A stretch of DNA of 64,000 nt from Escherichia coli O127:H6 str. E2348/69 (GTDB taxonomy: Bacteria; Pseudomonadota; Gammaproteobacteria; Enterobacterales; Enterobacteriaceae), in the NCBI RefSeq assembly GCF_000026545.1, contig NC_011601.1, one strand, 5' to 3'. Positions 2,644 to 15,607 of this stretch are shown here, piece after piece. Within the stretch, counting starts at the first letter, position 1. Each line of letters begins with the position of its first letter. The notes under the pieces were generated by a model. That model did not search any database. It was not told the origin of the DNA and saw only the letters and a program-made list of their open reading frames with translations. A program made the translations under genes and the position numbers.

Positions 2644-3786
2644 TCAAATCTGCTTTTCATACAATCGGTAACGCTTGTACGGCTCCGCCCCAATGCGTTC
2701 CAGCATGTTATTCATGCCTGTATTGGTTTCGAGGATCCATGACATTTCCAGCGCATCGATCTTCCGACGGGCAAACGGATCGCGTAAGGCTTCAATCAAT
2801 AACAGCGCAATTACCGGGCCGATGCGGCTGAACTGATACTCGTCCCGCACGCCCATCAGCGGTACTCGCGCAGTTCGCACACCGCTGACTTTCAAACGCC
2901 ACAGCAATTTTGCCCAGCCGAAGGGAAAGAGCGATCCGTTCAGATCGGCAATCGCCTCGTTGATGTTCGGCAAGCCGACAATAAACGCGCAGGGTGCAGA
3001 ATCAATCTCAGCGATGTAGATCATATCGTCCGGCACCAGATATTTAAGTTGATCGCCCATGGTCGCGAATTCATGTTCGGTAAACGGCACAAATCCCCAG
3101 TTGTGCTGCCAGCCAGAATTGAAAATCTCACGCAGGATCTGCATCTCTTCGGCAAACCGCTGGCGATTGATGCAGCGAATGGTCACCTTTTTGCGCACCT
3201 GATCCATCAGTTTTTTTAGCGCCGGAGAGAAAGTGAGATCGGTTCGCTGCATCCACCACGCCAGTAAATCAATGCCTTTGTGATAACCCAGTTGTTCAAT
3301 ATGCGCGGCATACCACGGTTTGCCGTGTGGCATCATCGCACAGGGCGGAGTGTCAAAACCTTCAATCAGTAATCCGCTTTCCTGATTGATATTCAGGCTG
3401 AAAGGCCCGCTGATCTTACTTGCACCTTGTGACTTTAACCACGCTTCCGCTGTACCAAACAACGCGGCAAAAACCTGCGGATCATCAATGGCGTCAATCA
3501 TGCCGAAATGACCGGTATCTTCACCGTAACGCTCACGGTGCAAGGTATCTATTTGCGCGGTAATACGCCCAACTATCTGCCCCGCTTTTTTTGCCACCCA
3601 CGCCTGCCAGATGATATGGTCCGTCCCCGGATTCTTCGCAGACAAATGCTCGTTGCGTTCAATGAATAAAGGGGGTATCCAGTTTGGATCGTCGGGATAA
3701 AGTGATGACGGAAAAGCGATAAATGCCTTAAGGTCATTTTTATTAATTACTTTTTCAATTTTAATCATCAGCAGATCGCATTCCAT
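2644..3786 (-). CDS. yghO: YghO, full-length 380-aa form; candidate N-acyltransferase (remembered as a pseudogene in K-12)
   Basis: 380-aa intact ORF beginning MECDLLMIKIEKVINKNDLKAF...; divergent from the adjacent biosynthetic operon. Function inferred from context only; exact start (1st or 2nd Met) uncertain. Confidence 0.75.
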   Translation of the reverse strand: MECDLLMIKIEKVINKNDLKAFIAFPSSLYPDDPNWIPPLFIERNEHLSAKNPGTDHIIWQAWVAKKAGQIVGRITAQIDTLHRERYGEDTGHFGMIDAIDDPQVFAALFGTAEAWLKSQGASKISGPFSLNINQESGLLIEGFDTPPCAMMPHGKPWYAAHIEQLGYHKGIDLLAWWMQRTDLTFSPALKKLMDQVRKKVTIRCINRQRFAEEMQILREIFNSGWQHNWGFVPFTEHEFATMGDQLKYLVPDDMIYIAEIDSAPCAFIVGLPNINEAIADLNGSLFPFGWAKLLWRLKVSGVRTARVPLMGVRDEYQFSRIGPVIALLLIEALRDPFARRKIDALEMSWILETNTGMNNMLERIGAEPYKRYRLYEKQI

Positions 3787-4138
3787 AGTTCTGTGGGTAA
3801 CAAATAATTAACGGTGACAAACAGGTTGCAACAGCAACGAACGGCACCTTAACAATCAACCCAATGAATACAAACGACGAATAAATAGTATTATTAATGA
3901 TTACGATAAGGTCAGAGACTACACAGAAGCGCCTCAATGCCTTTTGTCGATTTAAGGCGACCGGACAAGGCTTCTTCTTAATATATTCATAAATTAAATA
4001 TCATTCACAAAAAAACTCAAACTCATTATTTAAATCAATGTTCATTTTCACACTGATGAAAATACTATCTCATTTATCTTTTATGCCTATATAATCCACC
4101 GCATTATTGTCATTTTATTTTGGATATCCAATTTTTTC
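3787..4138. promoter_or_regulatory. Divergent promoter region between yghO and the FAAL-reductase-ACP-AOS operon
   Basis: 352-bp strongly AT-rich intergenic region with several TATAAT-like hexamers separating divergent genes; no specific operator identified. Confidence 0.4.
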
Positions 4139-5872
4139 GTGGTGTATATGTCTAATAAAATCTTTACGCATTCCCTACCTATGCGCTATGCCGATTTTCC
4201 AACGCTGGTTGATGCTTTGGACTACGCCGCTCTGAGTAGCGCCGGAATGAATTTTTATGACAGACGTTGCCAACTTGAAGATCAACTGGAATATCAGACG
4301 TTAAAAGCGCGTGCCGAAGCTGGTGCGAAGCGGTTGTTATCGCTGAACCTGAAAAAAGGCGATCGCGTGGCGCTGATTGCCGAAACCAGTAGCGGGTTCG
4401 TAGAGGCTTTTTTTTCCTGCCAGTATGCCGGCTTAGTCGCCGTCCCGTTGGCGATTCCAATGGGCGTCGGTCAGCGGGATTCCTGGAGCGCCAAACTGCA
4501 GGGTTTACTGGCAAGTTGCCAGCCCGCAGCCATTATCACTGGTGATGAGTGGTTGCCACTGGTCAATGCCGCGACGCATAACAACAACCCCGAATTACAT
4601 GTTTTAAGCCACGCCTGGTTTAAGGCATTACCGGAAGCCGATGTTGCGCTCCAGCGTCCAGTTCCAAACGATATCGCCTACCTCCAGTACACCTCCGGCA
4701 GCACCCGTTTTCCCCGTGGCGTCATTATCACCCATCACGAAGTGATGGCTAATCTACGTGCTATAAGCCACGATGGCATTAAATTACGCCCTGGCGACCG
4801 CTGCGTCTCCTGGCTGCCTTTCTACCATGATATGGGACTGGTCGGCTTTCTCCTGACCCCCGTCGCCACGCAGCTTTCAGTAGATTATTTGCGCACTCAG
4901 GATTTTGCCATGCGTCCTCTGCAATGGCTTAAATTGATCAGTAAAAATCGCGGCACCGTTTCCGTTGCACCGCCGTTTGGCTATGAATTGTGCCAGCGCC
5001 GCGTGAATGAAAAAGATCTCGCTGAACTGGATCTTTCCTGCTGGCGCGTCGCTGGTATTGGAGCAGAACCGATCTCCGCAGAACAACTCCATCAATTCGC
5101 TGAATGTTTTCGTCAGGTTAACTTTGACGATAAAACTTTCATGCCGTGCTACGGACTGGCAGAAAATGCGCTGGCTGTCAGCTTCTCTGATGAAGCCTGC
5201 GGGGTTGTGGTTAACGAAGTGGATCGCGACATCCTCGAATACCAGGGTAAAGCCGTCGCGCCGGGTGCTGAAACACGCGCCGTATCGACTTTCGTCAACT
5301 GCGGTAAAGCGTTGCCGGAACATGGCATTGAAATCCGCAATGAAGCAGATATACCTGTCGCGGAACGTGTGGTAGGCCATATTTGCATCTCCGGCCCCAG
5401 CCTGATGAGCGGGTACTTTGGCGACCAGGTTTCGCAAGACGAGATTGCCGCGACGGGCTGGTTAGACACCGGCGACCTTGGTTATCTGCTGGACGGTTAT
5501 CTGTATGTCACCGGACGCATTAAAGATCTGATTATTATTCGTGGCCGTAATATCTGGCCGCAGGATATTGAATACATTGCGGAACAGGAACCGGAAATTC
5601 ATTCTGGCGATGCGATTGCTTTTGTTACCGCCCAGGAAAAAATCATTTTGCAGATCCAGTGTCGGATCAGCGACGAAGAACGTCGCGGGCAGCTTATCCA
5701 CGCGCTGGCAGCTCGGATCCAAAGCGAATTTGGCGTTACCGCGGATATCGATCTGTTGCCGCCCCACAGTATTCCCCGAACATCCTCCGGCAAGCCTGCC
5801 CGTGCGGAAGCGAAAAAACGTTATCAGAAGGCTTATGCTGCCAGTCTTCATGTGCAGGAATCCCTGGCATGA
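4139..5872 (+). CDS. AMP-dependent synthetase/ligase; fatty acyl-AMP ligase or acyl-ACP synthetase-like
   Basis: 577-aa ORF with adenylate-forming core motif YTSGSTRFPRGVIITH and downstream GYLYVTGRIKDLIIIRG motif typical of the ANL superfamily; stop overlaps next gene start (ATGA). Confidence 0.85.
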   Translation: MVYMSNKIFTHSLPMRYADFPTLVDALDYAALSSAGMNFYDRRCQLEDQLEYQTLKARAEAGAKRLLSLNLKKGDRVALIAETSSGFVEAFFSCQYAGLVAVPLAIPMGVGQRDSWSAKLQGLLASCQPAAIITGDEWLPLVNAATHNNNPELHVLSHAWFKALPEADVALQRPVPNDIAYLQYTSGSTRFPRGVIITHHEVMANLRAISHDGIKLRPGDRCVSWLPFYHDMGLVGFLLTPVATQLSVDYLRTQDFAMRPLQWLKLISKNRGTVSVAPPFGYELCQRRVNEKDLAELDLSCWRVAGIGAEPISAEQLHQFAECFRQVNFDDKTFMPCYGLAENALAVSFSDEACGVVVNEVDRDILEYQGKAVAPGAETRAVSTFVNCGKALPEHGIEIRNEADIPVAERVVGHICISGPSLMSGYFGDQVSQDEIAATGWLDTGDLGYLLDGYLYVTGRIKDLIIIRGRNIWPQDIEYIAEQEPEIHSGDAIAFVTAQEKIILQIQCRISDEERRGQLIHALAARIQSEFGVTADIDLLPPHSIPRTSSGKPARAEAKKRYQKAYAASLHVQESLA

Positions 5873-6783
5873 ATCAAACTGTCGCGGTGACGGGCGCTAC
5901 CGGGTTTATCGGTAAATATATTATTGATAACCTGCTCGCCCGCGGCTTTCACGTTCGCGCATTAACGCGTACTGCCCGCGCTCACGTCAATGATAATCTC
6001 ATCTGGGTGCGCGGTTCGCTGGAAGATACACATTCGCTTAGCGAACTGGTTGCCGGAGCCAGCGCGGTGGTCCATTGCGCCGGACAAGTGCGCGGACACA
6101 AAGAAGAGATTTTTACCCGCTGTAACGTTGACGGCAGCCTGCGCCTGATGCAAGCGGCAAAAGAGAGCGGCTTTTGCCAACGTTTTCTGTTTATCTCTTC
6201 GCTGGCGGCGCGCCATCCCGAACTCTCCTGGTACGCAAATTCCAAACACGTCGCCGAACAACGACTGATCGCAATGGCTGACGAAATTACGCTGGGCATT
6301 TTTCGCCCGACAGCCGTGTATGGTCCCGGCGATAAAGAGTTAAAACCGCTGTTTGACTGGATGCTGCGCGGCCTGCTGCCACGACTTGGTGCGCCAGATA
6401 CACAACTCTCTTTCCTGCACGTCACCGATTTTGCGCAAGCAGTGGGTCAGTGGTTAAACGCCGAAACTGTACAGACGCAAACCTATGAATTATGCGATGG
6501 CGTCGCTGGCGGCTATGACTGGCAACGCGTACGACAGCTTGCCGCCGAAGCCCGTTGTGGTTCTGTGCGGATGGTTGGCATTCCTCTGCCGCTACTCACC
6601 TGCCTTGCGGATATCAGTACTGCGTTGAGTCGCCTGGCAGGTAAAGAACCTATGCTGACCCGCTCGAAAATTCGTGAATTAACCCACGCCGACTGGTCGG
6701 CAAATAATAACCGTATTTCTGAAGATATTAATTGGTTTCCCGGGATTAGCCTGGAACACGCATTACGCAACGGGCTATTTTGA
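5869..6783 (+). CDS. NAD(P)-dependent epimerase/dehydratase-family oxidoreductase (extended SDR); candidate 3-keto reductase
   Basis: Start chosen at ATG 5869 (MNQTVAVTGATGFIGKYIIDNL...), giving an N-terminal Rossmann GxxGxxG motif; the longer ORF from 5659 would overlap the upstream gene by 200 bp and is rejected. Confidence 0.8.
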   Translation: MNQTVAVTGATGFIGKYIIDNLLARGFHVRALTRTARAHVNDNLIWVRGSLEDTHSLSELVAGASAVVHCAGQVRGHKEEIFTRCNVDGSLRLMQAAKESGFCQRFLFISSLAARHPELSWYANSKHVAEQRLIAMADEITLGIFRPTAVYGPGDKELKPLFDWMLRGLLPRLGAPDTQLSFLHVTDFAQAVGQWLNAETVQTQTYELCDGVAGGYDWQRVRQLAAEARCGSVRMVGIPLPLLTCLADISTALSRLAGKEPMLTRSKIRELTHADWSANNNRISEDINWFPGISLEHALRNGLF

Positions 6784-6814
6784 TTGTCTTGTTTAAAGGT
6801 GTGTTAACGTTTCT

Positions 6815-7063
6815 ATGGTAAATCGTGAAATAGTAATGGATTACATCCTTTCCTGTTTACAGGATTTGGTCGAAAACGGTGTGGAAATTAAGCCCGACAG
6901 CGATCTCGTCAACGATCTTGGCCTGGAGTCGATCAAAGTGATGGATCTCTTAATGATGCTGGAAGACAGATTCGATATTTCCATTCCTATTAATATTCTG
7001 CTGGATGTCAAAACCCCTGCGCAATTAATGGAAACTCTACTTCCATGGCTGGAGAATAAATAA
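6815..7063 (+). CDS. Acyl carrier protein (phosphopantetheine-binding)
   Basis: 82-aa acidic ORF with ACP-like motif DLGLESIKVMDLLMMLEDRF (conserved Ser attachment site); AAAGG ribosome-binding site upstream; stop overlaps next start (TAATG). Confidence 0.8.
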   Translation: MVNREIVMDYILSCLQDLVENGVEIKPDSDLVNDLGLESIKVMDLLMMLEDRFDISIPINILLDVKTPAQLMETLLPWLENK

Positions 7064-8235
7064 TGGGGCTATACGATAAATATGCGCGCCTTGCTGGCGA
7101 GCGCCTGCAATTTAGTGATAACGGGTTAACACCATTTGGCACCTGTATTGATGAAGTATATTCCGCCACCGAAGGCCGGATCGGCAATAAAAAAGTGATT
7201 CTGGCCGGGACCAATAATTATCTCGGTTTAACCTTTAATCATGATGCTATCCGCGAAGGTCAGGCAGCGTTAGCGGCCCAAGGCACTGGCACCACCGGTT
7301 CTCGTATGGCAAACGGCAGTTATGCGCCGCATCTGGCGTTAGAGAAAGAGATTGCCGAGTTTTTCAATCGCCCTACCGCTATCGTTTTTTCAACCGGTTA
7401 TACAGCTAATTTAGGCGTCATCAGCGCACTTGCCGACCATAACGCCGTGGTGTTACTGGATGCCGACAGCCACGCCAGTATTTATGACGCCTGTTCTCTC
7501 GGCGGCGCAGAGATTATTCGTTTCCGCCATAATGACGTCAACGATCTGGAACGGCGCATGGTCCGCCTCGGTGAACGGGCGAAAGAGGCGATTATTATCG
7601 TTGAAGGCATCTACAGTATGCTCGGTGACGTTGCGCCGCTGGCAGAAATTGTTGATATCAAACGTCGTCTCGGTGGTTATTTGATTGTCGATGAAGCACA
7701 TTCGTTTGGCGTGTTAGGCGTAACAGGCCGCGGACTGGTTGAAGCCGTTGGCGTTGAAGACGACGTGGATATTATCGTCGGCACCTTCAGTAAAAGTTTG
7801 GCTTCCATTGGTGGTTTTGCCGTGGGTTCAGAAGCGATGGAAGTGCTGCGCTACGGCAGCCGCCCGTATATTTTTACCGCCTCTCCTTCTCCGTCCTGCA
7901 TTGCGACCGTGCGCTCGTCGTTAAGAACCATTGCCACACAACCAGAGTTGCGGCAAAAACTGATGGATAACGCCAACCATCTGTATGACGGTCTGCAAAA
8001 ACTGGGTTACGAGTTAAGTTCACATATTAGCCCGGTAGTGCCAGTAATAATCGGTTCGAAAGAGGAAGGTTTACGCATCTGGCGCGAGCTTATTTCGCTG
8101 GGCGTTTATGTGAATCTTATCCTGCCACCTGCCGCGCCTGCAGGCATCACGCTGCTGCGCTGTAGCGTAAACGCTGCCCACAGTCGTGAGCAAATCGATG
8201 CCATCATTCAGGCATTTGCTACTCTGAAGCAGTAA
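7063..8235 (+). CDS. PLP-dependent alpha-oxoamine synthase (serine palmitoyltransferase / 8-amino-7-oxononanoate synthase family)
   Basis: 390-aa ORF with class-II aminotransferase features: HSFG motif and PLP-lysine motif GTFSKSLASIGGF. A paralogue of BioF/Kbl, but co-operonic with an ACP and an acyl-AMP ligase. Confidence 0.85.
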   Translation: MGLYDKYARLAGERLQFSDNGLTPFGTCIDEVYSATEGRIGNKKVILAGTNNYLGLTFNHDAIREGQAALAAQGTGTTGSRMANGSYAPHLALEKEIAEFFNRPTAIVFSTGYTANLGVISALADHNAVVLLDADSHASIYDACSLGGAEIIRFRHNDVNDLERRMVRLGERAKEAIIIVEGIYSMLGDVAPLAEIVDIKRRLGGYLIVDEAHSFGVLGVTGRGLVEAVGVEDDVDIIVGTFSKSLASIGGFAVGSEAMEVLRYGSRPYIFTASPSPSCIATVRSSLRTIATQPELRQKLMDNANHLYDGLQKLGYELSSHISPVVPVIIGSKEEGLRIWRELISLGVYVNLILPPAAPAGITLLRCSVNAAHSREQIDAIIQAFATLKQ

Positions 8236-8241
8236 TGTGAA

Positions 8242-8272
8242 CCCGCCGTGGTGTTGCGCCACGGCGGGTTTA
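8242..8272. terminator. Bidirectional intrinsic terminator between convergent operons
   Basis: Perfect inverted repeat CCCGCCGTGG-(7 nt)-CCACGGCGGG followed by TTTA, between the plus-strand AOS gene and the minus-strand LptG-like gene. Confidence 0.7.
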
Positions 8273-9349
8273 ATGTTGTCTGTCATGCCAATACACCAGG
8301 CTCAACGCCACCAGCACAAACGCTACCGGTAAACCGAGCGCGGTAACAGGTGCGCTCAACGCAAATAGCAATCCCAGATTGACCATGATTTGATAGCTGA
8401 TCCAGGTGAGTAAACCAACGATGACCCCTACAGCGAGACGGCTACCCATCCTAGGCGAGCGCGGGGCACTAAAGGTAAACGGCACAGCCAGCAAAATCAT
8501 CGCCAGAGTCAAGATGGGTTGCCCCAGTTTTTCCCACAGTGCAAGGCGGTATTCGCTGCTGGGTTGCCCGGTTTCCTGCAAATAATGGATGTAATGATTA
8601 AGCTGACGGACAGAAAAAGTATTTCCCGGCATCGATAACTCTTCAAGATTCATACTGGTGAAGGTCGATTGCCAGGCAAGATAATCAGATGTTTCCTGCG
8701 TTTCTTTGCCATTCAGCCATTTTTTATGATTCACACCATGCAGGATCCACGTTTTGTCATCTTCAATGGTGGCACTGCGCGCATAAATGTAGGATTCGAG
8801 CGAGAGATCATCGCGGTAATGAAATATCTCCACGTCCACCGGCTGGCCCTGCTCGTTCAGCGATTTCACCGTCACAAATTCATTACCACGCCTGGCCCAC
8901 AGCATATTGCCGGTAATGTCATCGTCCTCCCCCAACGCAGTGGCAGTCGATTTGATTTGCAGCGCCTGTTGCTGCAATGGCGACGCCACCCACTCATCTA
9001 TCGCGCCTAATGAAACAGTCCACAATATCCCGGCAACCAGCGCCACCAGTGCAATACGGAAGATAGAAAACCCCGTGCTGCGAATGGCGGTAAGCTCACT
9101 GTTTTTCGATAACTGCCCCAGGCCGACAATCCCTCCCAATAAGGCGATAAACGGCGAAAGTTCGACCAGTGTGCGCGGTAAGGTCATCAGCACCACCAGC
9201 ACCGCCTGAGTCCAGCGATAACCACCCGGGCTGACATCATCCAGTTCGTTAATCAGGTTGAAGGTGGTAAAAAGCGGCAGCAATAGCCCTGCGGCGGCGG
9301 CAAAACCGAGAAAGAGATGACGGATTAAATAGCGACTGAAAACATTCAT
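8270..9349 (-). CDS. LptG-like permease (YjgP/YjgQ family)
   Basis: Multi-pass membrane protein; start placed at Met of MNVFSRYLIRHLFLGF..., which overlaps the upstream gene stop (ATGA). Resembles LptF/LptG N-termini and topology, with a central periplasmic domain. Confidence 0.75.
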   Translation of the reverse strand: MNVFSRYLIRHLFLGFAAAAGLLLPLFTTFNLINELDDVSPGGYRWTQAVLVVLMTLPRTLVELSPFIALLGGIVGLGQLSKNSELTAIRSTGFSIFRIALVALVAGILWTVSLGAIDEWVASPLQQQALQIKSTATALGEDDDITGNMLWARRGNEFVTVKSLNEQGQPVDVEIFHYRDDLSLESYIYARSATIEDDKTWILHGVNHKKWLNGKETQETSDYLAWQSTFTSMNLEELSMPGNTFSVRQLNHYIHYLQETGQPSSEYRLALWEKLGQPILTLAMILLAVPFTFSAPRSPRMGSRLAVGVIVGLLTWISYQIMVNLGLLFALSAPVTALGLPVAFVLVALSLVYWHDRQH

Positions 9350-10416
9350 CGGGAAAATTTCTGCAGCAAAGAGAAGTCGCGTGCGACCAACATCAGCAGG
9401 CCCATTAGCATGAGTCCGGGTACTAACCACAAACCAGGAATGAGGGGAATCGCGCCGTTAGCCACCAGCGTACGGCAGACGTCGCCGCCATAAAAAATGG
9501 CAACAAACAGCAACGTCAGTGGCAATAACGTTGAAAATCGCCCTTGCCGCGGTTTTACCCGACTTAATGAAATGGCCAGCAGCGCCATCAACAATGCTGT
9601 CAGGCCACGGCTTTGTCGCCATTGCAGTTCGGCATGATCGGCAGGAAAGGCGGAGCGCGCCAGCTCCGTGACCGATTTTGCTTTGCGTTTGACGTTAGGG
9701 CTTTGATCCAGCGGATTCAGATGTAATTGCAGATTACGGTAGATCTGTTCGTTGTCGTCACGCCCCTGATGATCGAGAAGATAGGCGGTCCCGTTATGCA
9801 ACATAACGGTCGGTTTCTCAGGTGATGGGTCAACCACATCAACCGAACGGGCGCGGAAAATGCGGGTTCGATTAGCAGTAGAAGTATAAATCAGCGCGTC
9901 AGTCAGGCGATTATTATCCTGATCAACCGTCTGCGAAAGGATCATTCGTCCGTTATCGTTAGTGTTAAATTGCTTTGCCCGCAACTGGCGAACATCCAGC
10001 TCCGACTGTGACTGTTGCTCCAGTTGATAAATCTGCGCATAAGCCCACGGACGACCATACATCGACAGAAGGGTGACAAAAATACTTAGCGGTATCGCCA
10101 GATAAAGAACGGCTTTGTACAAGCGTCCCGGACTGCCCCCCGCCGCAGAGATAGCGGTAATTTCCGAGTCGGTATACATCTGCCCTAGCGTCACGCCAAC
10201 TGACACATACAGTCCAACAGGTAACAACATCTCCAGTGCAATCAGCACTTTGTAGAAAACGATATCCAGCACAACATCAAGAGCTAATGTCCCATTTGCC
10301 GCTTCGGTCAGATAACGCTGTGCGGAGTAGCTGGCGAAAATAAAGATCAGAAAACCGACGATAATCAGCACCAGACGGCGCGTACCACGCATGATGTAGT
10401 GTTCAACCAGCTTCAT
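9346..10416 (-). CDS. LptF-like permease (YjgP/YjgQ family)
   Basis: 356-aa ORF MKLVEHYIMRGTRRLVLIIVGFLIF...; hydrophobic N- and C-terminal segments with a central soluble domain, as in LptF/LptG; translationally coupled to the downstream permease. Confidence 0.75.
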   Translation of the reverse strand: MKLVEHYIMRGTRRLVLIIVGFLIFIFASYSAQRYLTEAANGTLALDVVLDIVFYKVLIALEMLLPVGLYVSVGVTLGQMYTDSEITAISAAGGSPGRLYKAVLYLAIPLSIFVTLLSMYGRPWAYAQIYQLEQQSQSELDVRQLRAKQFNTNDNGRMILSQTVDQDNNRLTDALIYTSTANRTRIFRARSVDVVDPSPEKPTVMLHNGTAYLLDHQGRDDNEQIYRNLQLHLNPLDQSPNVKRKAKSVTELARSAFPADHAELQWRQSRGLTALLMALLAISLSRVKPRQGRFSTLLPLTLLFVAIFYGGDVCRTLVANGAIPLIPGLWLVPGLMLMGLLMLVARDFSLLQKFSR

Positions 10417-10445
10417 CTCACTAACGCCCTCAATCCTTTGAATTT

Positions 10446-11009
10446 TTATTCATTGATCAGCTTCTGCGCCAGCGCAATGACATGATCTACCTCTTCCGGC
10501 GTCAGGCTGCCGTCCTTTGCCCACTGAATTTGCCCGGTTTTATTCAGCACCAGAATGGTTGAACTCTGCTCCTGCAAGTGCCAGGCAACGCGTCCCTGTC
10601 CATTGCCGTCAATAACGAATTGCGCCCATGGATAGCGGCGTTTATTTTTTTCGATTTTGCCAACGACAAAATAGCCGGTACCAAAGATGGCATCATCAGT
10701 GTTCACAATGGTGGTGGGCTGAAAACGATCCTGCGGAAAGTTTGCCGCTTCAACTGCTTTAATTAACAGTGAGTTCTTTTTCTTCGCCGACTTACGCCCG
10801 GCGATATACTGAATAATGCGAACTTTTCCTGCCAATTGGGTGCTGTTCCACTTTTGGTAGTGAATTTCGTCGTCGCTATTCCGAAGCAGCTCGCCGCCTT
10901 CCTGGATATAAACGGGGGTAACCGTTTTGCCAGTGACGAAATTGTGTGCCTGCACACCCGGGGCTAAGAGCATGATAATCAGCGCAATAATCAAACGAGA
11001 TGACATCAT
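10446..11009 (-). CDS. Secreted periplasmic protein, YtfJ-like
   Basis: 187-aa ORF with N-terminal signal peptide (MMSSRLIIALIIMLLAPGVQA); family assignment is from memory of YtfJ-type proteins, not a search. Confidence 0.5.
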   Translation of the reverse strand: MMSSRLIIALIIMLLAPGVQAHNFVTGKTVTPVYIQEGGELLRNSDDEIHYQKWNSTQLAGKVRIIQYIAGRKSAKKKNSLLIKAVEAANFPQDRFQPTTIVNTDDAIFGTGYFVVGKIEKNKRRYPWAQFVIDGNGQGRVAWHLQEQSSTILVLNKTGQIQWAKDGSLTPEEVDHVIALAQKLINE

Positions 11010-11017
11010 TGCTCCGG

Positions 11018-11842
11018 TTATAGCGGAAAACGCGAAATCAGCAGTTCTAAGCGCTGGCGAATATCGCTATCCAGCGCCATCGGTGCATCATACGACTGGC
11101 GGTTTTCCATATCATCCGCCACCATGTCGTCGTGTTTATCCCCCATCAGGCCATTAATGGCGGCGAGGAAGCGGGAAATCTGTAACGCCTCTTTATTTTC
11201 AGGATCAAGCGATCTTAAGGTGTCGTAATAAGAAACCTGCTGGCTGATGATTTTTCGCACATCATGAAATTCCCTGCCAGTTAGTTGCGGTTTAGCAATA
11301 ATCTCTTTCAGGATGTACATTTGCTTCTGGCGGTAGGCGATAAAACCGTTCACGGTTTCTAACTGGCTATGGCGCAATGAATAGTTCACCAGCCACCAGA
11401 CAGGGGAGCTCAAATAAACACGTAACAGGTTACCGTAAAACGACACAATATTTTTCTTACCGTTACGAAAGCCATCCTGAAAATGCCCAAGAAAAACGGT
11501 CGTTTTGCCGAATAAAAATCCAGCCTGATGCTTCTTTAAATACAGCCGTTGCGCAAAACGCAGATGCTTGTAGCGCGCTCGCATGTATTTAAACTGTTTG
11601 CGCTCGTCTGTCGTCAGCTCATCGCCTTTCGCCTGTTTGCGGATTAAACGCAGTAACTCCTGACGATTAACACCATCCAGCCAGAATTTCAGGCATAACG
11701 CGTAATTATCATGGATGATTTCGGTGGTACAACTTAGTGCGATAGTCGGCGGCAAACTGACCTGTGCATCAACAACATCATCTTCTTCAATCGCAACAAA
11801 TAGACGCTCGCTCGCCTCAAGCGGGAAATATTTTCTCATCAT
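11018..11842 (-). CDS. Hypothetical basic protein, operon member of unknown function
   Basis: 274-aa ORF with no signal peptide or obvious transmembrane segments; start overlaps the yghQ stop by 1 nt; no recognisable catalytic motif. Confidence 0.6.
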   Translation of the reverse strand: MMRKYFPLEASERLFVAIEEDDVVDAQVSLPPTIALSCTTEIIHDNYALCLKFWLDGVNRQELLRLIRKQAKGDELTTDERKQFKYMRARYKHLRFAQRLYLKKHQAGFLFGKTTVFLGHFQDGFRNGKKNIVSFYGNLLRVYLSSPVWWLVNYSLRHSQLETVNGFIAYRQKQMYILKEIIAKPQLTGREFHDVRKIISQQVSYYDTLRSLDPENKEALQISRFLAAINGLMGDKHDDMVADDMENRQSYDAPMALDSDIRQRLELLISRFPL

Positions 11843-13191
11843 CAGGATTTCTCTCCGGTTGAGTTATAAAGCAAGGAATGGCGCTGAAAAAATGCCTTTA
11901 AGGTCGGAATTAGCGAGAGCACCACATCCAGACATTGCCCACCGAAGTAAGCAAATGCAGCCCCCAGCACGCCAAACAGATGACAGAACATGAACAGCAA
12001 TACGATGTAGCCGATTGAGGCGATGGTTTGCGCCACGAGAAAAGCGCGCTGTTTTCCCGCCATCAATAGCAATGACTCCTGTGGGAAGCCCAGCATCGAA
12101 ATCACAATTGCGCCCAGCATCACCTGAATCAGGTCATACGCTTCGAGATACTTAACGCCAAACACCAGCGAAATGAGCGGCTTGCCGACGATCAACACCG
12201 CGAGCGCCACCAGAATACCGATTCCGCCCGCCAGTAAACCGGACTTCACGCCTAACAACCACGGTCTGGTGGTGCGTGGATCTAAACGCATCACCTCTGG
12301 ATAAAAACTTTTGCCCAGTAAACCCGCTGGCGTTCCGGCGGCATCGAAGAATGTCATGGCGATTTTAAATAACCCGACAGCAGCGGGTCCTAACACGATC
12401 CCCACCAACACTGTGCTGCACGAGTTACGCGCCGACCAGATGGAGTGGGCAATGTTGGTTGACCAGACAAAACTCCACGCGCCTTTAATGTGTCGGGCAG
12501 ACTCAAACAGATTCAATTTGAAGGCGTTATGGATATTTCTGCGGCGTAATTCGCGCGCGGCAAACCACCAGTACATGGTGCCGCCAACCAGATTCGACAC
12601 GTACCAGGCAATAACAAAACCCGCAAAACCAAAGTCAAAATACCAGGCTACGACGCTCCCCGCTGCGCGCAGAAAAGGTTTCGTCGCCTGCTGTACAGCA
12701 ATCAAATCAAAGCGATCTACCGCACGCAGAATGCCGGTCGGCGTGGAGGAAGCCATTGAAGGAATGAGCGTGCAATAGAGCGCCGCCAGCCAAAAGCTTT
12801 GGTCATCCAGACCTAATGAATGGGAAAGGAATGGCAGTAAGGCAATGCCGCCGACAATCGCCACCGCGCCGCTGACGATATCCAGCGAGAAGGAAAATGA
12901 GACAACATTGCGAAATTGCTGCGGATTATTGTTGGTCAAGGCCGGCGTTCCGTACTGGACCACCAGTTGCCATGTCTGAAACTTAATAAAATCGCTGATC
13001 GATTTGGCGTACGATTGCACAATTACCAGTACGCCAAACATGGCGGGCGTCATCCCTTTACCGGCACACGAGAGCGCCAACAGCCCCAGCAAAGCGCTCA
13101 CAACATTACTGGAGCCTAACCAGGCGCTATTGCGAATAATGGTGCGAAACGCGCCATCTGCAAACCAATGTTTGATGTTTAAACCCGCCAA
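11842..13191 (-). CDS. yghQ: Polysaccharide/lipid flippase-like inner membrane protein (MOP superfamily), full-length YghQ
   Basis: 449-aa polytopic membrane ORF; the K-12 YghQ is remembered as shorter (N-terminally truncated), and this copy appears to be the intact form. Confidence 0.8.
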   Translation of the reverse strand: MAGLNIKHWFADGAFRTIIRNSAWLGSSNVVSALLGLLALSCAGKGMTPAMFGVLVIVQSYAKSISDFIKFQTWQLVVQYGTPALTNNNPQQFRNVVSFSFSLDIVSGAVAIVGGIALLPFLSHSLGLDDQSFWLAALYCTLIPSMASSTPTGILRAVDRFDLIAVQQATKPFLRAAGSVVAWYFDFGFAGFVIAWYVSNLVGGTMYWWFAARELRRRNIHNAFKLNLFESARHIKGAWSFVWSTNIAHSIWSARNSCSTVLVGIVLGPAAVGLFKIAMTFFDAAGTPAGLLGKSFYPEVMRLDPRTTRPWLLGVKSGLLAGGIGILVALAVLIVGKPLISLVFGVKYLEAYDLIQVMLGAIVISMLGFPQESLLLMAGKQRAFLVAQTIASIGYIVLLFMFCHLFGVLGAAFAYFGGQCLDVVLSLIPTLKAFFQRHSLLYNSTGEKS

Positions 13192-13236: not shown

Positions 13237-13995
13237 TTAAGTTAAACTTCGGCGGTCAGAAACGATGGCAACCAGAGAAACCGCCTTCTGTGCCTGTTCC
13301 AGCACCTCGCTGTAAGGCGCTCTGGAATCAATCTCAAGAATTTTTGTGCCGTTATAGCCAATCGTCGACATGACGCCGATTTTGTCCTGCAGCTCGGCAT
13401 AGTCATGGTCAGGCTTGCGGGAGATGGCAGTATCAATATCAATCCCCAAGCGAATGATTAATTCAGGACGGTATTGCGCCATTTGTTGGTATAAGCGCCG
13501 TTCGCGCTGCGCCAGAAACATGCTGATTTTCCCGGTCGCACGTTCGACGCCGATCCCCGGTCCGTCATAATAAAAGCCCGAAATTTCAGCCTGCGGGAAG
13601 CGATCGCTGACCACCAGAACGCCACTTTGCGCCAGTCGCTGAACCTTGCGCAGATTCGCCATTCTTCGCAGCGAGAAGCAGTACATAATCACCGCCGCCC
13701 ATAGCGCCGGAGATTTGGTTTTCATGCTTTGGGTTTTCGAGGATTTGGCCGCCAGTCGCCGTTCCAGCCAGACGCCAACCAACGGCAACCGTTTGATTTT
13801 GTCGCCGTCTTCGCCTGAGAGCAGCCCCAGATAGCGGCGCTCGGTTTGCCAGTGTTGTTGCAGCGATTTCACCAGGTCAGTGGTCAGTGTGGATTTACCG
13901 GTGCCATCACACCCGACCACCGCAATCAGCCCCGGAATGTAGTTGGGCTGCGGCGCGGTTGTACTCTTAACAGTTTGTGTTTGTAGTGCATCCAT
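13237..13995 (-). CDS. yghR: P-loop NTPase, kinase-like (YghR)
   Basis: 252-aa ORF; Walker A GCDGTGKST plus VVSDRFPQ (DRY/F-like motif of nucleoside/nucleotide-kinase-fold proteins); paralogue of the next two genes. Confidence 0.85.
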   Translation of the reverse strand: MDALQTQTVKSTTAPQPNYIPGLIAVVGCDGTGKSTLTTDLVKSLQQHWQTERRYLGLLSGEDGDKIKRLPLVGVWLERRLAAKSSKTQSMKTKSPALWAAVIMYCFSLRRMANLRKVQRLAQSGVLVVSDRFPQAEISGFYYDGPGIGVERATGKISMFLAQRERRLYQQMAQYRPELIIRLGIDIDTAISRKPDHDYAELQDKIGVMSTIGYNGTKILEIDSRAPYSEVLEQAQKAVSLVAIVSDRRSLT

Positions 13996-14026: not shown

Positions 14027-14740
14027 TCAGGAAAGCGCGGCGTGAATTGCGCGTAGTGACGCTTGCAGAATTTCATCGGCTGGTTGCCGACCATCCAGTT
14101 CAAGGATCTTTGCGCCATTGAATGTCAGTTGCGGCGTAACGGCGATTTTTTCCTGTAACGCTGCCAGTTGGTGGTCAGGTTTACGCGCAAACGCGGTTTG
14201 TTCATCAATGCCAAGACGAATCAACAATACGGGCAAATAAGACGCCATCCATTGGTACAGCTTCAGCTCGCGCTGCCTTAACATTTTTATCCAACCGTTA
14301 CCGCCCGTGGTTTTTGCCAATTGCGGGCCATCAAAGCGAAAACCCGGCACTTCAACCTGCGGGTAGCGGTCGGTGATGAGCAGATAGCCTTGCTGGCTTT
14401 TACACAACATTTTGCGAAACTTGTACGCCCGCCAGCAGGAAAGCAGATAGATAACCAGCGCAGTAATATTGCCAGGCGGTGTTAAGGGCTTTTCGTGCAC
14501 ATGTGCCGCTTTACTTCGCAAATAACGCCCAAAAGGTGCGCCAATAACAGGGAGCTGTGAAATCCATTCGCCAATTCGCCCGGACGATTGCCCGAGATAA
14601 ATGTGTTCTGTTGGCATTCTTGATGCCAGTTCATTTACCAGGCTTGCCGTGAGGGTCGATTTACCTGAACCATCACATCCTACAATGGCAATAACACGCA
14701 CTGGCGTGGAATTAATTATTGACATATTACGTTGATTCAC
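14027..14740 (-). CDS. yghS: P-loop NTPase, kinase-like (YghS)
   Basis: 237-aa ORF; Walker A GCDGSGKST and LITDRYPQ motif; paralogue of YghR and YghT. Confidence 0.85.
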   Translation of the reverse strand: MNQRNMSIINSTPVRVIAIVGCDGSGKSTLTASLVNELASRMPTEHIYLGQSSGRIGEWISQLPVIGAPFGRYLRSKAAHVHEKPLTPPGNITALVIYLLSCWRAYKFRKMLCKSQQGYLLITDRYPQVEVPGFRFDGPQLAKTTGGNGWIKMLRQRELKLYQWMASYLPVLLIRLGIDEQTAFARKPDHQLAALQEKIAVTPQLTFNGAKILELDGRQPADEILQASLRAIHAALS

Positions 14741-14914: not shown

Positions 14915-15607
14915 ATGCAGTCAATAATACCTCCATTAATTGCCGTTATTGGTAGCGATGGTTCAGGCAAGTCAACGGTGTGTGAACATCTTATTACCGT
15001 TGTCGAAAAATATGGTGCTGCCGAAAGGGTTCATTTAGGAAAACAGGCCGGAAATGTCGGTCGTGCAGTGACAAAATTACCGTTGATGGGAAAATCCTTA
15101 CATAAAACAATTGAACGAAATCAGGTAAAAATAGCAAAAAAATTGCCGGGACCAGTTCCGGCGCTGGTAATTACAGCGTTTGTCGCCCGCCGCTTACTGC
15201 GCTTTCGTCATATGCTTGCCTGTCGTCGTCGCGGGTTAATTGTTTTAACCGACCGTTATCCGCAGGAACAGATTCCTGGCGCTTATGATGGTACGGTGTT
15301 CCCGCCTAACGTTGAAGGTGGTCGTTTTGTCTCATGGCTGGCAAGTCAGGAACGTAAAGCATTTCACTGGATGGCGAGCCATAAGCCCGATCTGGTCATC
15401 AAACTCAATGTCGATCTGGACGTAGCCTGCGCGCGTAAGCCTGACCACAAAAGAGAATCGCTGGAAAGGAAGATAGCAATAACGCCACAGTTAACCTTTG
15501 GAGGCGCGCAACTGGTTGATATCGATGCCAATCAACCGCTGGAACAAGTGCTGGTTGATGCGGAAAAAGCGATTACGGATTTTATGACCGCGCGTGGTTA
15601 TCACTAG
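14915..15607 (+). CDS. yghT: P-loop NTPase, kinase-like (YghT)
   Basis: 230-aa ORF; Walker [10 protein letters not shown] and VLTDRYPQ motif; divergently transcribed from yghS. Confidence 0.85.

Follow-up and report, generated by a model that had tools for sequence, protein, structure and literature searches.

A gene of Escherichia coli O127:H6 str. E2348/69, labelled 'hypothetical protein' by RefSeq, was analysed in a window of 64,000 nucleotides (nt) from contig NC_011601.1, and all positions below are those of this window. The gene is named ybl138 in a few E. coli records, and this name is used here. Its product very probably has the CHAD fold, and the family around it is concluded to be a remote, previously unrecognised and highly diverged stand-alone branch of that fold, not a member of CHAD by the curated Pfam model. 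yghQ, which encodes a candidate lipid flippase, accompanies ybl138 more constantly than any other gene, and the kinase genes yghR, yghS and yghT stand close by in the locus for ceramide synthesis. We tentatively propose, giving it nearly an even chance, that Ybl138 is a non-catalytic CHAD-type binder of a phosphate-rich anion and a partner of YghQ and YghR/S/T, which would present a phosphorylated sphingolipid at YghQ for flipping.

11018..11842, minus strand: ybl138 (WP_000984970.1), 274 residues, ATG start and TAA stop.

Homologues of Ybl138 numbered 343 by a word-indexed search, and an exhaustive search gave 197 cluster representatives (E <= 1e-3). Nearly all are 270-300 residues long, and the family is basic with a median isoelectric point (pI) of 9.27. 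Two motifs were read from an alignment of 79 sequences, the first being K85-x2-R88-x3-K92-x2-R95, H105 and G119-x2-Q122-D123, and the second H193-x2-R196-K197-x2-S200, N230, G234-x2-H237-D238 and Y251. These residues were invariant or nearly so, with K85-R88-K92-R95 conserved at 84-100% and H193-R196-K197 at 94-100%.

The AlphaFold2 model of Ybl138 was all-alpha with 11 helices and of high confidence (predicted local distance difference test 96.9, predicted template modelling score 0.93). In the model the helices would form two up-down four-helix bundles around a pseudo-twofold axis, the architecture of CHAD (PF05235) as in RcCHAD (6qv5), CtCHAD (3e0s/6qv7) and Streptomyces PptA (6rn5). Structure prediction with fold comparison, which had been suggested as a check when the protein was described from its sequence, thus gave a confident all-helical model, while the Foldseek comparison, taken up below, was not significant. 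A profile of the family matched the Ricinus CHAD structure 6qv5 with E 0.0024 and with both motifs colinear; against the Chlorobium CHAD the E value was about 1. When the 79 relatives were scanned one by one, Pfam CHAD was the sole recurring family (three at E <= 1e-3, 22 at E <= 0.1, best 2.5e-5), so that the homology is remote and seen at the level of the family, and the E. coli protein itself is not recognised by the Pfam model. In addition, when the first half of the family was compared with the second, they aligned (P 0.0027) in the register expected from the internally duplicated architecture of CHAD (Lorenzo-Orts et al.).

The basic surface by which CHAD domains bind polyphosphate is made of His/Arg/Lys helix motifs, including His253, Arg256, Arg260 and Arg296 in CtCHAD, and binding by His253 and Arg256 was shown by mutation (Lorenzo-Orts et al.). 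H193 and R196 of Ybl138 align with His253 and Arg256, and S200 stands at the position of Arg260. The second CtCHAD bundle has an H-x2-R-x3-K-x2-R motif, on which K85/R88/K92/R95 fall, Lys replacing His. The protein shares with CHAD the basic character, the size of the 'long' CHAD domains (about 270-300 residues) and the repeated [H/K]-x2-R-x3-[K/R] helix motif followed by a G-x2-x-D helix motif. It differs by Lys in place of the first conserved His, by two basic positions lost in the second motif, by an identity of 9-17%, and by the extra invariant residues H105, N230, H237 and Y251. The family probably descends from CHAD domains. YgiF, the E. coli CYTH triphosphatase (PDB 5a61), carries a short C-terminal CHAD without a central pore, fused to its enzyme, whereas Ybl138 stands alone as a protein and its gene is coupled to that of a transporter.

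Single-sequence searches of NCBIfam, PHROGs, PADLOC and the PDB sequences returned nothing usable, and a Pfam match to SPP1_GP23-1 (E 0.093) was dismissed as noise. The original prediction had reported no recognisable domain, which stands for direct searches of this kind and fails at the level of family and fold. It had also named a clear match to a well-characterised unrelated family, for example a phage or insertion sequence remnant, as an outcome that would speak against it; no match to a phage, insertion sequence or defence family was obtained (best PHROGs E 0.84, PADLOC none). 'CHAD domain-containing protein' was the UniRef name of one relative, and the others whose names were read were hypothetical or uncharacterised. 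The relative so named is the copy in NZ_SZPQ01000026.1 (locus L031, 'Martelella alba' BGMRC 2031), a genome labelled as an alphaproteobacterium. Its locus is of the Enterobacterales type: the genes follow the E. coli order, and their proteins are 61-78% identical to those of E. coli. This assembly is probably misclassified or contaminated.

An enzymatic role, in which H105, D123, H193, H237-D238 and Y251 would make up a metal site or a site of phosphoryl transfer, for instance of a head-group phosphohydrolase or phosphotransferase, is unlikely. The invariant His and Asp residues, with an H-D pair among them, and a locus with no other obvious head-group transferase speak for it. D123 and D238, on the other hand, stand at the G-x2-[QH]-D positions aligned with LG-x3-D of the CHAD structures, so the fold accounts for their conservation. 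The CHAD domains characterised so far bind phosphate polymers without catalysis and lack a conserved metal site, and no hydrolase fold was matched; neither the HD fold nor the H...HD...D metal site of metal-dependent phosphohydrolases was found in Ybl138. Of the two roles raised from the sequence alone, an enzyme or an assembly factor of the pathway, the former thus received no positive support, and an accessory role remains the most likely class. The protein also does not resemble periplasmic bridges of the LptC/LptA type, which are beta-jellyrolls, as its model is all-alpha and it has no signal peptide or anchor.

The protein was described at the outset as basic and soluble-looking, in agreement with its pI of 9.15, its grand average of hydropathy of -0.38 and the lack of any hydrophobic segment (highest 19-residue Kyte-Doolittle mean 0.82). 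No signal peptide and no membrane segment were found in its sequence, and from the absence of export signals it is predicted to be cytoplasmic. The DNA read showed that the TGA stop of yghQ (11844-11842) and the ATG of ybl138 (11842-11840) have one base in common in TGATG (11840-11844). A possible ribosome-binding site precedes this overlap.

11851..11856, minus strand: Shine-Dalgarno-like GGAGAG in the 3'-terminal part of yghQ, 8 nt ahead of the ybl138 ATG.

Since this site and the stop/start overlap occur together, ybl138 appears translationally coupled to yghQ, and the 1-nt coupling to a flippase-like gene claimed earlier was recovered. Its position between yghQ and a gene for a periplasmic YtfJ-like protein was likewise confirmed, the latter starting 11 nt downstream of the ybl138 stop.

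Comparison with other Escherichia copies gave a ratio of nonsynonymous to synonymous substitution rates (dN/dS) of 0.07-0.09, which means strong purifying selection. A survey of 5426 complete E. coli genomes found ybl138 in 4127 (coverage of at least 80%), where it was chromosomal, syntenic and each time labelled 'hypothetical protein'. The low dN/dS, the many homologues and this wide presence indicate a real gene and not a chance open reading frame. Most E. coli genomes are 90-95% identical to E2348/69 across ybl138. When window positions 10446-11842 were compared with three other Escherichia loci (L003-L005), ybl138 and the ytfJ-like gene had diverged more than their neighbours, with amino acid identities of about 90% and 84-89% versus 95-97% for yghQ, lptF2 and yghR. 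The dS of ybl138 was 0.54-0.64 versus 0.22-0.55 for neighbour genes. Old allelic lineages or recombination may account for this raised divergence, with dN/dS still low.

The ceramide-synthesis genes and the other genes of the locus in E2348/69 are as follows.

2644-3786, minus strand: yghO/bcerS, ceramide synthesis.
4148-5872, plus strand: aasR, ceramide synthesis.
5869-6783, plus strand: cerR/epi, ceramide synthesis.
6815-7063, plus strand: acpR, ceramide synthesis.
7063-8235, plus strand: spt, ceramide synthesis.
8270..9349, minus strand: lptG2, second LptG-type permease, last gene in the apparent yghS-to-lptG2 operon.
9346..10416, minus strand: lptF2, second LptF-type permease.
10446..11006, minus strand: gene of a YtfJ-family periplasmic protein (TIGR01626, E 3.7e-63) with a signal-peptide-like N-terminus, directly downstream of ybl138.
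11842..13191, minus strand: yghQ, 449 residues, membrane transporter of the Polysacc_synt/MOP superfamily and candidate lipid flippase (Pfam Polysacc_synt E 4e-9; match to the NCBIfam MOP flippase model under its cut-off).
13237..13995, minus strand: yghR, P-loop kinase of the YghR/S/T family with dTMP-kinase fold and DRYPQ and ARKPDH motifs of its own.
14027..14740, minus strand: yghS, paralogue of yghR, its modelled structure best matched by dTMP kinases.
14915..15607, plus strand: yghT, third paralogue of yghR and yghS, divergently transcribed.

From yghS to lptG2, all on the minus strand, successive genes are separated by 31, 45, -1, 11, 29 and -4 nt, and no convincing internal terminator was found between the two genes; therefore the seven genes from yghS to lptG2 look like one operon. 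A perfect GC-rich hairpin of 16 bp (8238-8272) was observed in the 34-nt gap between the converging stops of spt (8235) and lptG2 (8270), which is likely a bidirectional terminator for the spt and lptG2 operons.

The gene neighbourhood was scanned with a 23-sequence alignment, taking one genome per species; 158 relatives were obtained and 79 loci kept, in which neighbours were sought with the E. coli neighbour proteins and counted as nearby within 10 kb. Among the Enterobacterales the loci came from Escherichia, Pseudocitrobacter, Hafnia, Serratia, Pantoea, Erwinia, Sodalis, Rosenbergiella and others. The remaining loci were from the Luteibacter/Rhodanobacter/Dyella group, from Sphingomonadales (Novosphingobium, Sphingobium, Sphingopyxis, Sphingomonas), from Acetobacteraceae (Acetobacter, Komagataeibacter, Bombella) and from a few metagenome-assembled genomes. 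yghQ was nearby in 68-70 of the 79 loci and a YghR/S/T-like kinase in 69. In 61 loci yghQ was directly upstream of the ybl138 homologue on the same strand, in line with the conserved context first noted for the gene. The spacing between the stop of yghQ and the start of the homologue was measurable in 67 loci; the two overlapped in 48 (4 nt of overlap in 30 loci, 1 nt in 10) and were at most 13 nt apart in 62. This overlap was found from Enterobacterales to Sphingomonadales, so the coupling of the two genes is conserved between two proteobacterial classes.

The genes spt, acpR and cerR were nearby in 44 of the 79 loci, which belong to Enterobacterales and to the Luteibacter/Rhodanobacter/Dyella group and differ in gene order. 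Both in Enterobacterales and in Rhodanobacteraceae, Ybl138 is thereby tied to the sphingolipid locus. The co-occurrence with Spt-like genes that the original prediction proposed to look for was thus seen in part, the closest partners being yghQ and YghR/S/T rather than Spt. The ytfJ-like gene (44 of 79) and lptF2/G2 (overall 40-44 of 79) were confined to Enterobacterales.

In Acetobacter and Komagataeibacter the place directly upstream is taken by a kinase gene, and yghQ is found at a distance of 1-3 kb. A gammaproteobacterial metagenome-assembled genome (L077, 5501-10214) has two copies of the ybl138 homologue interleaved with three genes for YghR/S/T-like kinases, Luteibacter has two homologues in tandem (L043, 9968-11760), and one protein of 564 residues (P0124) consists of two full domain copies in tandem. 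The domain has therefore been duplicated repeatedly. These arrangements bear on a phosphate-independent role, in which Ybl138 would be a structural or regulatory partner of YghQ such as a chaperone, gate or plug. The tight and conserved coupling to yghQ, in 61 of the 79 genomes, would suit such a partner; in the Acetobacteraceae and in L077, however, the protein stays with the kinases and not with yghQ, and its conserved residues are the basic ones of the CHAD type, so we regard this role as improbable.

The company of the gene also bears on whether Ybl138 is a true polyphosphate-binding CHAD protein (phosin-like), supplying or positioning polyphosphate or short oligophosphates for YghR/S/T or tethering the module to polyphosphate granules. 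The CHAD fold, the basic family and the conserved counterparts of the polyphosphate-contacting His and Arg would fit this. Stand-alone CHAD proteins are usually encoded beside kinases or phosphatases acting on polyphosphate, but none of PPK1, PPK2, PPX and CYTH was found among the annotated recurrent neighbours of the 79 loci, nor was a fusion to CYTH/TTM; the neighbours are instead a MOP transporter and proteins of the dTMP-kinase fold. Moreover, part of the canonical basic surface is gone in motif 2, and YghS is dTMP-kinase-like and not PPK2-like. Polyphosphate binding of this kind is accordingly given a low probability.

The profile of the YghR/S/T family matched dTMP kinases (E 3e-7). Nearly invariant motifs were seen in its alignment (A3; YghS numbering): D124-R125-x-P127-Q128, G133, D137-G138 and A183-x2-R186-K187-x-D189-H190. 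A helical insert at about residues 50-116, partly of low confidence in the model, is absent from dTMP kinases. The RefSeq annotation of YghR/S/T as 'dTMP kinase' is probably wrong.

The ceramide-synthesis cluster has been characterised biochemically in its E. coli B versions, and ceramide is made by these genes. By annotation the E. coli locus holds neither a glycosyltransferase nor a CDP-alcohol transferase, so YghR/S/T are the only candidate head-group enzymes, and an anionic phosphorylated ceramide is therefore the expected product. We infer that the kinase-flippase module of Ybl138 modifies or exports sphingolipids, with Ybl138 as a candidate missing part. The binding of a phosphate-rich anion is proposed for Ybl138 since characterised CHAD domains bind phosphate polymers non-catalytically. 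Ybl138 would be made in the cytoplasm in a fixed proportion with YghQ by way of the overlapping stop and start codons. YghR/S/T would phosphorylate ceramide to an anionic head group or a phosphorylated intermediate, which Ybl138 would bind and hold or present at the cytoplasmic face of YghQ. YghQ would then flip the phosphorylated sphingolipid across the inner membrane, and LptF2/G2 might extract the flipped lipid towards the outer membrane.

This proposal fits the result in Caulobacter that the Lpt paralogues matter specifically with an anionic sphingolipid. There LptF2/G2 form a complex and bind LptB, and their deletion is not possible as long as the cells produce the anionic sphingolipid CPG2; the LptF2 counterpart is required for anionic sphingolipid transport. 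The head-group and transport genes of Caulobacter (CpgA-D, CC_1166, LptF2/G2/C2) follow the same locus logic as in E. coli, with ceramide genes beside head-group enzymes, a flippase candidate of the Polysacc_synt type and a second LptFG pair; a counterpart of Ybl138 has not been described there, and Ybl138 is not related to the head-group enzymes of Caulobacter. Two Caulobacter candidates were rejected: the ceramide kinase CpgB as a relative of YghR/S/T, being of the LCB5/DAG-kinase type and not a P-loop kinase, and CC_1167, which adjoins CC_1166, as a counterpart of Ybl138, being CDP-glycerol glycerophosphotransferase-like. As of 2024 no sphingolipid flippase had been identified, according to the authors of the localisation study, a gap that the proposal would address.

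Several results weigh against the proposal or the fold on which it builds. Pfam CHAD does not match the E. coli protein even at E <= 10. Foldseek of the model against the PDB gave nothing significant, 6qv5 being ranked fourth with E 0.35 and a TM score of 0.48. An hhalign comparison of the family with E. coli YgiF found no match and was uninformative, as the CHAD of YgiF is short and divergent and was compared as a single sequence. Motif 2 lacks two basic residues that canonical CHAD has at +7 and +8, with S200 for Arg. In five loci (L017, L026, L062, L069, L072) the gene has neither yghQ nor a kinase nearby. In Sphingomonadales and Acetobacteraceae, where sphingolipid genes are scattered, the module is not adjacent to spt, and the link to sphingolipids there comes from the known biology of these taxa. 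No E. coli sphingolipid with a head group was reported in the literature searched, and the related flippase candidate CC_1166 of Caulobacter has no CHAD-like partner.

The module might instead act on a different component of the envelope, for example a phosphorylated glycolipid or polysaccharide, its proximity to sphingolipid genes in Enterobacterales being due to shared regulation or chance. In its favour, 35 of the 79 loci have no spt within 10 kb, five loci of alpha- and betaproteobacteria share a recurrent gene for a GT4 glycosyltransferase, and the family of yghQ is best known for flipping polysaccharide units. Yet the module sits inside the spt cluster in two independent orders, in Enterobacterales and in the Luteibacter/Rhodanobacter/Dyella group, despite their different gene orders, and most genera are Sphingomonadales, Acetobacteraceae or lineages carrying spt, which agrees with the published distribution of sphingolipids. 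The chance of another substrate is rated as small.

A bolder form of the head-group proposal, for which we see a very slim chance, is that YghR/S/T build a pyrophosphate or oligophosphate on ceramide, and that Ybl138 recognises the chain and hands the lipid to YghQ, from where LptF2/G2 would take it to the outer membrane. It is put forward because the chemistry of dTMP kinases phosphorylates a phosphate and relatives of YghQ flip pyrophosphate-linked lipids. If true, this would be a new class of bacterial lipid, and the first CHAD ligand that is a lipid head group and not free polyphosphate.

In K-12 MG1655 (L086, NC_000913.3 3130146-3131340), compared with window positions 3787-12100, an IS5 element (insH9) stands between yghO and a truncated yghQ of 355 residues. 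It replaces aasR, cerR, acpR, spt, lptG2, lptF2, the ytfJ-like gene, ybl138 and the 3' part of yghQ. K-12 retains yghR/S/T, and the sphingolipid and transport half of the locus is gone. ybl138 is thus lost from K-12 by an IS5-associated deletion, and so it has no K-12 name and no literature. No functional study of it was found in the literature on yghQ/R/S/T, ybl138 or E. coli sphingolipids, and the searchable literature held no mutant or lipid data for the gene.

Further genes recur beside the module. In 10-12 loci the kinase-yghQ-ybl138 module has beside it a pair of genes for a sensor histidine kinase and a response regulator of the OmpR family, about 1-4 kb from the ybl138 homologue (L053, L054, L065, L068 and other loci of Sphingomonadales and Carnimonas), and regulation of the module by this recurrent two-component system is conceivable. 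Several other loci share an MdtABC-like RND efflux system and the GT4 glycosyltransferase.

Among the distant relatives, P0255 and P0264 (L081, 8001-10931) have a phosphotransferase of the APH/choline-kinase type fused to two CHAD-like copies, with a signal-peptide-like N-terminus, and signal peptides were also seen on P0193, P0236 and P0242. Judged from these N-termini, some members of the wider family may lie outside the cytoplasm. The neighbourhoods of the distant relatives with signal peptides and of the APH fusion were unrelated and uninformative on function. Open reading frames of 701-774 residues that seemed to fuse YghQ with the Ybl138 homologue (L052, 8744-10849; L071, 8489-10813; Sphingobium wenxiniae and Sphingomonas formosensis) were rejected as alternate-frame artefacts. 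In these high-GC sphingomonads the pseudo-fusion frames give an Arg/Ala-rich translation upstream of the true start, and they are a trap for automatic gene callers.

Most natural E. coli have a complete sphingolipid locus, of which the ceramide half has been studied and the final lipid and the post-ceramide genes have not. The proteins of the dTMP-kinase fold, YghQ and Ybl138 form a constant trio, and in an organism with easy genetics they offer three candidates that can be tested for roles in phosphorylating the head group and in flipping. With the assignment of Ybl138, about 200 sequence clusters labelled 'hypothetical' gain a fold and a motif, and CHAD, so far tied solely to inorganic polyphosphate, is placed in the context of membrane lipids.

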